Source of the DNA: a virus
Taxonomy: Duplodnaviria > Heunggongvirae > Uroviricota > Caudoviricetes
DNA length: 63,658 nt
Reading direction: 5' to 3' (one strand)
IMG/VR virus record: IMGVR_UViG_3300031088_000776
Translations under genes and position numbers: made by a program
Notes under the pieces: model-generated
The model's database searches: none
What the model was told of the DNA's origin: nothing
Seen by the model: the letters and a program-made list of their open reading frames with translations, nothing else
Part shown: piece by piece, positions 35,271 to 38,806 of the stretch
How the letters are laid out: each line of letters begins with the position of its first letter
Position numbering within the stretch: position 1 is the stretch's first letter

Positions 35271-36503
35271 TCAAACTAAAGAAAGCTTCTCAAGCATACT
35301 TGATTCAGTAGCACCATTCAAAACCGAAAGAATCTCTGCCTCAACAGAAACTCGGTCATTCACCCAATCAGACTCCCAAACGAAGTAAAGTCTAATACCT
35401 AAATCCGCGCACTTATCAAACTTCATTTTATGGTACTCTTCAGAAGTCATACCATGATTATGAGTAAGAAACTTATCAGAATGCCAATAATCACCATTAA
35501 ACTCAAAGGCAATGCTTAACGAGGGGATAACAGCATCTAACTCATAGGGTTTAATAATACTTCTAGAATTTTCAACAATATCTTCACTAGTTATGCTCTT
35601 CAAGAACTCAATGAACTCTAACTCAACTCGAGAAACTCCGCGCAAACGATCCTCACTTAATAAAGGATCCATATGGCGAGTAAGCCAGCGCTGAGTAAAA
35701 GGCTCTTCATCTTCAGACAATTTCTCATTCATAGACTTCAACAAAGTCTCACGAGTCAAAGACTTATTCACATCATAGTGGTTCGCTAATTCTTGAAGAC
35801 TCTCAAACCCAGCCTTCTTTAACTTCAAAAGATTAGCCTCTAACTCGGCTCGAGACTTAGCGCCACGACGTTCTATCAACTGCTCTCTAGTTTTCTTAAT
35901 CTCAAGCTTCTTTAAAACTGTAGTTAATGCTTTATCACCTAGACTACGACCAATCGCATCTGAAAGAATTTCTTTAACCCTATTAAAAGAAAGATTCTGA
36001 GTACAGTAAAGATCTTCAATAACATCTTTAGTATAACCAGCCGACTCTAAATGCTCTATAGTTTCTACAGCAGGAATATCTCGCTTAACTTCAATACCAG
36101 CTTCTTTGAGAATCTTAGAGATTGTAACTGCTGCTACCCCAGTTTTCTCTCTTATTAATCGAATGCTTAAACCGGATTTTGACATTTCTATAAGATCACT
36201 CTTTGTATATTTTCCAGCGTATAATCTTTCCTTCTTCTGGTGACTATCACTGATTATTTTAGCTCTGTCTCGCAAAGCTTGATCTCGCTCGTTGTTAGGT
36301 ATCTCATAATATTCAAAAACTTTGATAAAACTTCTATATGTGATAACGGTATCCTCTCTAAGCTCATTAATTTTAGATGTAATATCCTTTTTAGAAAGAC
36401 CTGAGAGATATAAGGACTCAATCTCGCTTCTAGAAAAACCGTTTTCAGCCATAAACTTAATTGTCTTCTTAAGATGCCGACCAATATAAACTTCATCTGA
36501 CAT
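35271..36503 (-). CDS. HTH-repeat + Hef-like PD-(D/E)XK endonuclease
   Basis: HTH-like GLSIRLIREKTGVAAVTISKIL; C-terminus YELDAVIPSLSIAFEFNGDYWHS...RLYFVWESDW. Confidence 0.75.
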   Translation of the reverse strand: MSDEVYIGRHLKKTIKFMAENGFSRSEIESLYLSGLSKKDITSKINELREDTVITYRSFIKVFEYYEIPNNERDQALRDRAKIISDSHQKKERLYAGKYTKSDLIEMSKSGLSIRLIREKTGVAAVTISKILKEAGIEVKRDIPAVETIEHLESAGYTKDVIEDLYCTQNLSFNRVKEILSDAIGRSLGDKALTTVLKKLEIKKTREQLIERRGAKSRAELEANLLKLKKAGFESLQELANHYDVNKSLTRETLLKSMNEKLSEDEEPFTQRWLTRHMDPLLSEDRLRGVSRVELEFIEFLKSITSEDIVENSRSIIKPYELDAVIPSLSIAFEFNGDYWHSDKFLTHNHGMTSEEYHKMKFDKCADLGIRLYFVWESDWVNDRVSVEAEILSVLNGATESSMLEKLSLV

Positions 36504-36552
36504 AAAAATCTTCTTCCATATCTTTTAAAATATATATTGGTATTTTACCGAG

Positions 36553-37737
36553 TTAATCTTTGAAGAGTACTGAAAGAATATTCAAATGAATAGACTCATC
36601 GTCTAACGCAAGTCTAATAGATTCTTTAACCAAAGATTCCTTAAACCTCCAATCGCTTTCCCAGACATAAAGGAGCTTAACGCCTCGAGACTTACAAAGT
36701 TCATACTTTAAAAGATGATAGTTGTAAGAAGATCCATAAGTCTCTGAAACAATTGAATTGCTATGCCAATAATCTCCATTAAATTCAAAAGCAATATTAA
36801 GACTAGGTATATAAATATCTAACTCTAAAGGTGGAATGACTTTTCTTGTGTTTGAGATTACTTCTACTTCTTTCGACAAAGTTTCTTTAAGAAAATCTAA
36901 AAGCTCAATCTCACCCTTAGAGACAATATTAGATTTAGCGCATTTGGGGCACCCAGAACCAGCGACTCTATTATAGATAAAAGCATCCCACGAGTGAGAA
37001 CATTTCCTGCAATTCCACCAGACTTTTTCATTTGAACTTGATAGACATTCCGATGGGTTTTTAAAATTCTTCTCTGACCACTCTTCGCACAATACAGGAT
37101 ATTTTGACTCTAAATCATTAAAACCTACAAGTATTTTTCGTGCAGGCTTTGAACAGTAAGGGCAAATCCTACCTTTTACTCTTTTTTGTATCGACATAAA
37201 ATAACCATGCTTATGTGAAGTTTTCAGGCACTCCCAAATAACGACTTTATTACTCTGAGAAAGAAATTCTGAAGGCCTATTTTTATTCTCTTTAGACCAT
37301 TCTCTTGCAATCTCAGGGTATAAAGTCTCTAAATCATTTATTCCTTTAATAGGCTTACGTTTACCGCAATATGGGCAAGGTTCTTTCATTTTAGAAGCTT
37401 GAAGTAAACTAAGTTTAAACCTATGGCCTTCAAAGCATTTTAAGTGAGCAACAAATGAGGGGAAAACTTCAAAAGGTTTCTCAAAGTTTAACTCATAATC
37501 CCAGAGATAAAGAAACTTTGATAGTTTTGTTTCAGCATCGTTAAAGCCTGTCCATACCTTTTGATTCGTGCAGTAAGGGCAACCTTTATTACGAATAACT
37601 CTAGAGTCTAGCCTTGCAACCCACTCATGTTTTAAAAAGCATTCCCAAATAAGAGTTTGGCTCTTTTTGAAATCTGTTTTAATACTTTGTGGGTTCTTTC
37701 TAGAATATTCTAAAATAAGAGAATTAGTTAGTTTCAC
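36553..37737 (-). CDS. Multi-Zn-ribbon + Hef-like PD-(D/E)XK endonuclease
   Basis: Four WxC/C...H...CPxC repeats; LELDIYIPSLNIAFEFNGDYWHS. Confidence 0.8.
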   Translation of the reverse strand: MKLTNSLILEYSRKNPQSIKTDFKKSQTLIWECFLKHEWVARLDSRVIRNKGCPYCTNQKVWTGFNDAETKLSKFLYLWDYELNFEKPFEVFPSFVAHLKCFEGHRFKLSLLQASKMKEPCPYCGKRKPIKGINDLETLYPEIAREWSKENKNRPSEFLSQSNKVVIWECLKTSHKHGYFMSIQKRVKGRICPYCSKPARKILVGFNDLESKYPVLCEEWSEKNFKNPSECLSSSNEKVWWNCRKCSHSWDAFIYNRVAGSGCPKCAKSNIVSKGEIELLDFLKETLSKEVEVISNTRKVIPPLELDIYIPSLNIAFEFNGDYWHSNSIVSETYGSSYNYHLLKYELCKSRGVKLLYVWESDWRFKESLVKESIRLALDDESIHLNILSVLFKD

Positions 37738-38806
37738 TATAAGGTATAGTCTCTACTTGACTGTCAGGATTAGCAAATGATAGGACTTCTACTAGGGTGT
37801 CTGCGGAAAGGCTCTTCCCGCCGCCGGTACCGCCACCTATGAATACCATTGGTGATGTTGTGATAGTGGGGCTCACTTTCAAACCATTCTTTTTACCTTC
37901 TTTAGCCTGCTCACCAGATAGGTCAAATCCTAAGACATATTCCAATTCGCCTGACTCTTCATTCATCAGCTCTACTCCGTTCTCCACACCTAAGGCGAGC
38001 GGGAAGAAAGCCCAGTGAATCCCTGGACTCAGCACGTAGCGTTCACTCCATGGAGCCATTGTTGGAAGCGGCGGAACCGCGTGGAATGTTGCTTGACCGC
38101 TTTGGTAGTCCCATCCTGGAGTCGGCGGATCTGCTTCCATGTCTGGGCTTGGAACCCACGCTGTTTCCGCACCAAAAAGCTGATTGAACTGTCGTAAGAA
38201 TCCTTCTTCCCCTTCAGCTCCGAAGTTATCTGGAACTTGGTAACGAACTTTCTGTGGTTTAACGTAGTCATTCCACTCTAGAACTTCAATAACCGCTTGC
38301 GGATTATCTTTATGCTCCATGCTAAGACCTAGTTTTGATTGCCCAATACTAAACATTCGGTCAAGAACTTTTCTACGAGTTTCAATAATTGGTTTAGCTG
38401 TTTTCATAGCCCACTGTAGTGTCATGAAGAATCCTAGGTAGCCAATGAGAATAACCCACCAGATCCCTACAACTGCACCAACAATGGATATTGCTAAAGA
38501 TATTAGGTGGAAGAGAAAGAAAGCCTGCTTGTTTGTCATTTTTGAAGATGTCGGCTCTCCTCCTTTTCCTTTTTTAGGCTTACCTAGAACTAGATCACGC
38601 TTGTCTTTTAACGCAAATTTTAAAAGTTCTTGCCATTTAGGCCATAGTGGCTTAGGTAGGCTCTTTAGAGCTTGAGCGTTGTTTCCCTTGATTTTTTGCG
38701 CTCTTTTTTCTATTAGAAGCTTCTTATGTAAGAAAGCAGCTAATCTAAAGAGTATTGGCATGACTATTAAGTAGCCTGCTGTAACGGCAATGATAATATT
38801 TAGCAT
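37724..38806 (-). CDS. Membrane-anchored FtsK/TcpA-like protein, N-terminal half ending in an intein N-fragment
   Basis: TM segments, FFPLALGV, then Walker A GGGTGGGK followed by SLSADTLVEV and a stop 29 aa later; the rest of the ATPase is absent. Confidence 0.75.
   Translation of the reverse strand: MLNIIIAVTAGYLIVMPILFRLAAFLHKKLLIEKRAQKIKGNNAQALKSLPKPLWPKWQELLKFALKDKRDLVLGKPKKGKGGEPTSSKMTNKQAFFLFHLISLAISIVGAVVGIWWVILIGYLGFFMTLQWAMKTAKPIIETRRKVLDRMFSIGQSKLGLSMEHKDNPQAVIEVLEWNDYVKPQKVRYQVPDNFGAEGEEGFLRQFNQLFGAETAWVPSPDMEADPPTPGWDYQSGQATFHAVPPLPTMAPWSERYVLSPGIHWAFFPLALGVENGVELMNEESGELEYVLGFDLSGEQAKEGKKNGLKVSPTITTSPMVFIGGGTGGGKSLSADTLVEVLSFANPDSQVETIPYSETN
37727..37813 (-). other. Putative split-intein N fragment (29 aa)
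   Basis: SLSADTLVEV matches intein block A (C/S-L-x-x-D-T-x-V) and sits right after the Walker A Lys, a known intein insertion site. Confidence 0.65.

Follow-up and report, generated by a model that had tools for sequence, protein, structure and literature searches.

The interrupted FtsK-like gene

The DNA stretch analyzed here, called the window, is the 63,658-nucleotide virus record IMGVR_UViG_3300031088_000776 (Caudoviricetes). It contains an FtsK-like ATPase gene that stops inside its Walker A motif, at what is probably one break of a three-piece split intein. The gene is an open reading frame (ORF) of 360 amino acids (aa) on the minus strand (37724-38806), and the Walker A Lys is residue 331. 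Residues 1-331 (37814-38806, minus strand), designated as the N-extein, represent the N-terminal part of an FtsK/SpoIIIE-family ATPase, with full-length homology to 100 proteins. They contain three membrane helices by prediction, as well as a soluble domain and a strand-loop that ends with SPMVFIGGGTGGGK, and thus with GGTGGGK. The break falls within the P-loop and separates the Lys from the Ser of GK|S. The remaining 29 aa (37727-37813, minus strand), designated as IntN1, consist of the intein block A, SLSADTLVEV, and a non-conserved tail ending with SETN, and the stop codon TAA is at 37724-37726.

Two genes follow downstream. The first (GTG start at 37737, end at 36553) shares 14 nt with the N-half gene, and the second (35271-36503) is situated 49 nt further; they are designated as HEG1 and HEG2 for homing endonuclease gene. 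The early stop 29 aa after GGGK and the 14-nt overlap had been described in an earlier note based on the letters of the window, and both are confirmed. The window corresponds to positions 223,909-287,566 of a 697,643-bp ENA contig (ERZ27247443, k141_1324127). This contig and an independent Logan contig show the same order of the N-half gene, HEG1, and HEG2, and contigs of other studies with ~95% identity span all three genes. Thus, the break is present in real DNA and does not stem from misassembly.

The N-half alone has no match in Pfam, because the gene stops inside Walker A. In tblastn searches, the N-half matched neither a GenBank phage nor a PLSDB plasmid. No copy of the window's N-half protein itself was found in IMG/VR, and no exact window 44-mer in the JGI metagenome contigs. 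No Rfam family matched the window at the gathering thresholds, and thus, no group I intron is indicated. Among the public runs listed as containing the locus, none is an RNA run. Small-share runs (bird, feces, dairy, skin, and soil) were disregarded as indicators of habitat.

Conservation of the break among relatives

An exhaustive phmmer search with the N-half revealed 100 relatives. Around 65 of them, 320-356 aa in length, carry a conserved block A and come to an end 11-30 aa beyond GK. An early stop of this kind, 11-63 aa after GK, is shared by more than 60 homologue clusters. The block A motif [AS]-x-x-x-[DNE]-T-x-[VI] after GK is kept in 63 homologous N-halves, and its presence there is thus not due to chance. 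The tail after GK in these 63 N-halves is 11-60 aa long, with a median of 16. Its first residue is Ala in 39, Ser in 23, and Cys in one; the window has Ser.

Some relatives are contiguous. Four of them (P0063, P0068, P0071, and P0039) read GKS-V-L-Q-R-N-I and continue into the FtsK/SpoIIIE motor (PF01580), and the consensus of the intein-free homologues at the site is GKS-V-[LA]-Q-[RQ]-N-I. The earlier note had considered that intein-free homologues might natively read GKSLSADT, which is contradicted by this consensus. No contiguous intein at the split site was found among the retrieved proteins.

A sister phage with ~73% nucleotide identity, from the run SRR29026073, was used as the reference for the ratio of nonsynonymous to synonymous substitutions (dN/dS). 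The ratio is 0.11 for the N-half, 0.045 for the middle piece of the intein described below, and 0.05 for the insert of that piece. The N-half of the sister phage (P0326, L024:4056-5528) ends with SLSVDTLVEVVKFADR (...EVVKFADR), which differs from the tail in the window, so the conserved part of the tail comprises only the first ~12 residues. In addition, it harbors an intact mini-intein of class 1 at a site ten residues upstream from the break, PM|CLKGDT...VLHN|CFIGGG, where the window reads PM-V-FIGGG. Such an insertion would be expected to be retained only where the gene product has a use. This mini-intein (C...HN|C) is variably present among the close relatives and was also found in P0001, P0003, P0010, and G006 (L055). 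Two intein sites, the class-1 site and the split site, are therefore situated within one P-loop strand.

Read-through or frameshifting from the N-half gene into HEG1 was considered and ruled out. The stop codon is TAA, the fusion restores no intein, and the sister phage has no HEG1 at this position.

The C-terminal halves

A hidden Markov model (HMM) built from the C-terminal parts of the contiguous homologues was used to search for C-halves; on the window it was run with all filters off and in six frames. The profile of contiguous C-parts detected free-standing proteins of 294-410 aa. They begin with M-K-I-K-S-I-K-x-I-x-P-x-x-S-x-C-I-[SE]-V-D-S-x-D-[KR]-L-F-A...[TS]-H-N, followed by S-V-x-Q-x-N-I-I... 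and the motor; the intein part of the C-half of one huge-phage record (G002) ends with SGGEDAVSFVTHNS. Like the contiguous homologues, the C-halves carry PF01580 and belong to the FtsK/SpoIIIE family. A second search with an alignment of C-halves gave 882 hits at E <= 1e-20.

In 22 aligned C-halves with identity down to 36%, four residues are invariant: C16 (Cys F4), H37, N38, and S39, the +1 Ser. The position G5 is Thr or Ser. All C-halves examined have an intein part of ~40 aa, designated as IntC, containing blocks F and G only. Judging from these residues (Cys F4, Thr/Ser-His-Asn, and the +1 Ser), this part is assigned as the C-terminal part of a class-3 intein. When ...GGTGGGK of the N-half is joined to S-V-x-Q-x-N-I... 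of the C-half, the contiguous GGGKSVLQRNI of P0063 and P0039 is rebuilt.

The earlier note had listed no C-half among the ORFs of the window, and this holds: the best E-value of the HMM in six frames is 3.8, while true C-halves score from 1e-65 to 1e-92. The motif scan and the tblastn search with 17 contiguous homologues were negative as well. A match to the post-P-loop helix at 58220-58282 was rejected, as it is situated in a sigma-factor-like ORF. There is no C-half up to 101 kb downstream or up to 25 kb upstream of the N-half in the window genome. In relatives, the C-half is 54-118 kb away from the N-half, and its absence from the window is therefore expected. The neighborhoods of the C-halves in two huge-phage records (G002 and G003) have almost nothing in common with the 127.5 kb examined around the window's N-half, and the zeta-kinase neighborhood seen on one Logan contig is not kept in the window genome.

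Many C-halves and contiguous homologues (P0281, P0277, P0305, P0149, P0223, and P0039) have a further contiguous class-3 intein just past Walker B (...SGVK|[SA]L...THN|TDEGK).

The middle piece of the intein

With an IntC of ~40 aa and an IntN1 of a median of 16 aa, neither piece holds block B. In the rare P0064 cluster and in P0059, the N-half is fused in frame to a further part of the intein and represents a two-piece form; the P0064 N-half reads on for 193 residues past GK. The tblastn search with P0064 against the window revealed a match at 22995-23135 with the E-value 1e-10, in the ORF 22557-23189. This gene (22557-23171, minus strand), 14.5 kb downstream of the N-half gene, encodes a free-standing protein of 204 aa (P0327), designated as IntM. 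Its assigned parts are the strands that follow block A, block B itself (ASGNHLWY), a conserved insert of ~115 aa, and the strand that precedes block F.

IntM is a member of a family of 77 homologous clusters, all of which are free-standing proteins of 199-247 aa. The motif A-S-G-N-H-L-W-Y is nearly invariant among 41 aligned members, with no variation at S, G, N, H, and Y; W, which the window has, occurs in at least 90%. The IntM profile matches solved inteins: gp41-1 with the E-value 2e-7, the class-3 MchDnaB-1 intein with 6e-7, and the Mycobacterium smegmatis DnaB intein 1 with 1.5e-5. The profile positions 6-60 align to the intein residues 15/17-67/69, so IntM starts where the N-piece ends. 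At the other end, G-R-V-V-T-T-E-Q-L...L-P of IntM is equivalent to the strand that precedes block F in contiguous mini-inteins of class 3, such as that of P0039, and IntC begins at the next strand. When the three pieces are concatenated for G002 and for G003, they cover the contiguous class-3 mini-intein of P0039 (156 aa) from end to end, as well as a contiguous intein of a VirB11-like gene inside the window.

The AlphaFold2 (AF2) model of the window IntM has a mean predicted local distance difference test score (pLDDT) of 89.7 and is composed of N-terminal strands, a helix-rich insert of ~115 residues, and a final strand. Foldseek aligned the strands to class-3 DnaB inteins with 34-36% identity over ~55 residues. 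The insert (residues ~60-175) is well predicted, strongly conserved, and located at the usual position of the endonuclease; no convincing fold match for it was found with Foldseek against the PDB or in a wider structure search (Z <= 5).

A gene for a protein of 282 aa (23179-24027, minus strand) shares 11 nt with the start region of the IntM frame. It has no family match, in Pfam or in NCBIfam. In the sister phage, a gene for 281 aa (L025:7669-8514) ends 8 nt ahead of IntM. In G002, a gene for 281 aa (L010:11024-11869) is located between the N-half and IntM with a 4-nt overlap, so that the gene is translationally coupled to IntM both there and in the window, and its similarity to the window protein is weak (E-value 0.002). 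A relationship to degenerate FtsK-like proteins was not confirmed by hhalign against the C-half profile (probability 0.07). It is uncertain whether the ~281-aa gene is part of the system; it could be either a fourth partner or just a passenger.

Co-occurrence of the three genes

When IMG/VR was scanned for patterns from the alignments of the three pieces, 13 huge-phage records were obtained, and each of them was searched as a whole with the three profiles. The early-stopping form of the N-half is present in 12 of the 13. All seven records rated as at least 90% complete contain the N-half (7/7), IntM (7/7), and the C-half (7/7), and the less complete G003 and G010 likewise have all three genes. 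In these nine records, the genes are always three separate frames, with an N-piece of 14-63 aa and an IntC of ~40 aa lacking block B. The distance between the N-half and the C-half is 54-118 kb. The fractured, intein-interrupted FtsK-like ATPase with a distant partner, as proposed in the earlier note, is in agreement with this arrangement.

IntM is found 2-10 kb after the N-half in seven of the nine records and elsewhere in two high-GC records. The N-half, the 281-aa gene, and IntM constitute a tight operon in G002. In the window, the interval between the N-half and the pair of the 282-aa gene and IntM contains three endonuclease genes, another FtsK-like gene, and others. The architecture of the three genes is thus conserved, their products are complementary in intein blocks, and the N-half and IntM are under purifying selection.

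Proposed mechanism of three-piece trans-splicing

The intein blocks are distributed across the pieces: block A is in the N-halves, block B is in IntM, and blocks F and G are in the C-halves of relatives. When IntM and these C-halves are taken together, the WCT triplet of class-3 inteins (Trp B12, Cys F4, and Thr G5) is present. The comparison of these sequences makes it likely that the N-half gene and the IntM gene of the window are two genes out of three for a natural three-piece class-3 split intein, which trans-splices a membrane FtsK-like ATPase of a phage of ~0.7 Mb. The earlier note had proposed a conjugative coupling ATPase; this role is not supported, as the setting is a phage genome and not a demonstrated conjugative element.

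The product of the first gene (37724-38806) would be the N-extein with the short IntN1 carrying the block A strand. The second gene (22557-23171) would provide free IntM with the catalytic His of block B, the insert, and the strand before block F. The product of the third gene would be an IntC of ~40 aa fused to the C-extein, which begins at the Walker A Ser and contains Walker B together with the remaining motor. The three polypeptides would join non-covalently into a single Hint fold, in which IntM would contribute the His of block B and the greater part of the fold without ever being covalently bound to an extein. On the class-3 route, Cys F4 of IntC would attack the peptide bond between Lys331 and residue 1 of the intein, and the acyl group of the N-extein would then move to Ser+1. 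Cyclization of the terminal Asn and an O-to-N shift would produce ...GGTGGGK-S-V-x-Q..., in which the full Walker A is joined to Walker B. The ligation of the exteins would give an active ATPase of ~600 aa and release IntN1, IntM, and IntC. The Vsr-like homing endonuclease genes would be the mobile elements that made or maintain the fracture.

The three genes are located in different genome regions and may therefore be expressed at different times. A tentative extension is that IntM acts as a diffusible splicing factor, so that the assembly of the ATPase would be a three-input AND gate, and that IntM, with its conserved extra domain, might undergo turnover, be subject to regulation, or work for further fractured genes of the phage as well; this is possible but rather doubtful.

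Several points weigh against the three-piece split intein. Splicing and the three-way assembly are inferred from sequence for every member. Residue 1 of the window IntN1 is Ser, and a class-1-like first step is thus possible in this phage. Trp B12 is replaced with Met, Phe, or Leu in some relatives. The matches of IntM to the Pfam family Intein_splicing are below the threshold, and its conserved inserted domain has no assigned role. The window genome's own C-half was not seen by the HMM in six frames at the contig positions 160,058-287,566 (127.5 of 697.6 kb, 18%), and it is absent among the 120 listed C-half clusters. The window genome is larger than those of the relatives and its DnaB block is inverted, and the lack of a C-half in 18% of the contig is therefore uninformative.

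Alternative explanations

It is unlikely, though conceivable, that the Hint fragments no longer splice and are retained only as docking tags, with the ATPase functioning as a permanently split complex. The variation of residue 1 and Trp B12, and the inferred status of splicing, would be compatible with this idea. So would the large conserved domain of IntM under selection, which is needless for a mere splicing piece. On the other hand, the residues required only for the chemistry (Cys F4, His-Asn, Ser+1, and the block B Ser/His) are invariant across deep divergence. Moreover, nucleotide binding would hardly be possible for a P-loop in which a Hint fold of ~270 aa separates GK from S.

The earlier note had offered a pseudogene as an alternative, and the window N-half might be a decaying remnant after the insertion of homing endonucleases, left without a working partner. 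The three endonuclease genes directly downstream and the failure to find its own C-half in the 127.5 kb around it are consistent with such decay. The frame is nevertheless open for 360 codons, and its dN/dS against the phage of ~73% nucleotide identity is 0.11. The truncation is family-wide, being the same in the >60 clusters and the 12 of 13 IMG/VR records; the C-half of relatives is always 54-118 kb off; and IntM is intact in the same window with a dN/dS of 0.045. These observations contradict the pseudogene and make it very improbable.

Least probable is the atypical two-piece split intein to which the earlier note had referred, with a short IntN, a long IntC, and an unrelated Hint gene at 22557-23171: natural atypical split inteins with an IntN of 16-25 aa exist, and the window genome's own C-half, which would carry its IntC, was not seen in the 127.5 kb examined, but the ~40-aa IntC without block B is found in all nine C-halves (9/9) sharing a record with an N-half and in the listed free-standing ones, and the intein's middle part is encoded by a third gene, which is fused to the N-half in P0064 and P0059, shares its operon in G002, and co-occurs in 7/7 complete records.

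Predicted homing endonucleases beside the break

HEG1 (36553-37737, minus strand) encodes a protein of 394 aa with Zn-ribbon repeats (DUF4379, E-value 4e-37) and a Vsr-like/EDxHD nuclease domain, and matches PHROG 559/3339, annotated as homing endonuclease. HEG2 (35271-36503, minus strand) encodes a protein of 410 aa with helix-turn-helix (HTH)-like repeats and a Vsr-like nuclease domain (PHROG 3339, E-value 3.5e-28). The nuclease domains of the two proteins align, with the invariant motifs E-x-D, E-x-N-G-x-x-x-H, and W-E-x-x-W (E46, D48, H66, and E101). The AF2 model of the HEG1 nuclease domain has a pLDDT of 78.6. Its top Foldseek match is I-Bth0305I (3r3p) with the E-value 3.5e-3, probability 1.00, and template modeling (TM) scores of 0.55 for the query and 0.73 for the target, followed by Vsr (1cw0) with probability 0.99. 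The phmmer search of the nuclease domain against the PDB returned spurious designed TIM barrels only, which were discarded. HEG1 and HEG2 are thus predicted, based on the modeled fold, to be free-standing homing endonucleases of the Vsr-like/EDxHD (I-Bth0305I) family; the earlier note had called the two downstream genes free-standing endonucleases.

A HEG2 homologue is located directly after the N-half in the sister phage. In one population (run X8, 8.6-kb contig), HEG1 has a 1-nt deletion at position 37063 that would shift the frame, which suggests that HEG1 is decaying in some strains. Together with the absence of HEG1 in the sister phage, this fits mobile, partly decaying selfish genes. At least seven genes combining zinc-ribbon or HTH repeats with a Vsr-like nuclease are present within 127 kb: three in the window (15510-16391, 35271-36503, and 36553-37737) and L026:18772-20262, L027:8608-9669, L029:1375-2514, and L030:8871-9704. 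They are an expanded family of free-standing homing endonucleases.

Other inteins and features

A gene for a VirB11/TadA-like ATPase (ORF 59296-61347) contains a contiguous class-3-type intein of 269 aa (60049-60855, minus strand), whose insertion point in the P-loop is the same as that of the split intein (GAGK|DLHVDT...IPTHN|T). The orthologues of this ATPase in G002 and G003 have no intein and are encoded by a single frame of 418-433 aa. A related FtsK-like family is split elsewhere in the P-loop (GS|TGGGKS) by a two-piece intein, which is cut between block N2 and block B. The IntN of this family is ~57 aa long (P0091 and P0092), and the IntC is ~90 aa long and starts with K-C-D-G-R-H-I-W (P0112, P0115-P0135, P0141, and P0151). 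Taking all sites together, inteins occupy at least four positions in the FtsK-like ATPase.

The gene at 27412-29043 (minus strand) encodes a protein of 543 aa with one P-loop, GKTNSGKT, and no family match; its counterpart in the sister phage is 586 aa long (L025:2367-4127). It was earlier called FtsK-like, and it does not match the profile of the C-part of the fractured gene. In the intergenic region 33251-33752, the summed word depth is higher than in the flanks by a factor of 25-65 in each of the four runs, and this is where many contigs stop. The region probably represents a short repeat with many copies in these phages or samples.

Comparison with known systems

Natural inteins reported so far are encoded by one gene or two (bioRxiv 10.1101/2023.01.30.526203). 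Three-piece inteins have been engineered from Npu DnaE and gp41-1 (Weis et al. 2023, bioRxiv 10.1101/2023.01.30.526203), and a three-piece Ssp DnaB intein split after residue ~11 splices (Sun, Yang and Liu 2004, as cited in PMC11923092). A full-text literature search found no natural three-piece or tripartite intein. In the literature searched, the arrangement proposed here from sequence comparison is thus known from engineered inteins only. The engineered constructs likewise have an N-piece of ~11 residues that corresponds to the first strand, a middle piece free of exteins, and a C-piece with blocks F and G, and their first split after residue ~11-14 is where IntM starts. They are, however, laboratory constructs of class-1 inteins, whereas the pieces described here are natural genes, class-3-like, and up to >100 kb apart, with an extra domain in IntM.

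If the three-piece split intein is real, nature uses the three-way reassembly of the Hint fold, and this would be widespread, with 77 IntM clusters, >60 N-half clusters, and hundreds of C-halves. The family would offer ready-made, co-evolved parts with an N-piece of 11-16 residues for three-input protein ligation and peptide labeling. The P-loop-less FtsK-like pseudo-ATPases and the orphan Hint proteins in the annotations of huge phages would be pieces of one enzyme, and huge phages could time the activation of a DNA-motor ATPase via protein splicing.

The natural atypical split inteins AceL-TerL and VidaL have an IntN of 16-25 aa, and their IntC, of ~100 aa or more, is the rest of the Hint fold. 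The very short IntN on the N-extein is thus shared with them, while their long IntC is represented here by an IntC of ~40 aa and a separate protein. Contiguous class-3 inteins of the P-loop, such as the mycobacterial DnaB intein 1 (6bs8/6rix) and the VirB11-like intein of the window, also have the Walker A insertion, the block B H-x-W, Cys F4, and the T-H-N end, but are single polypeptides.

AceL NrdHF, the only natural split intein of class 3 reported and the first of its kind, is made up of two pieces, and no split variant was found by its authors among 1701 class-3 inteins (Hoffmann et al. 2021, PMC7891396). It resembles the present family in being naturally split, in its metagenomic and phage-like origin, and in having Cys F4, a varied WCT triplet, and no requirement for an N-terminal nucleophile. 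It differs in its two pieces and in the host protein and insertion site, and the family described here has hundreds of members. This family would be a large second one beside the single known natural split class-3 intein.

Fractured genes of phages that combine a split intein with a Vsr-like homing endonuclease family have been described (Dassa et al. 2009, PMC2677866). As in those cases, a conserved DNA-metabolism-type ATPase of a phage is cut by a split intein, and a free-standing Vsr-like gene directly follows the N-half. Their N-half, endonuclease, and C-half are contiguous on one strand and the intein is in two pieces, in contrast to the distant C-half and the third gene found here.

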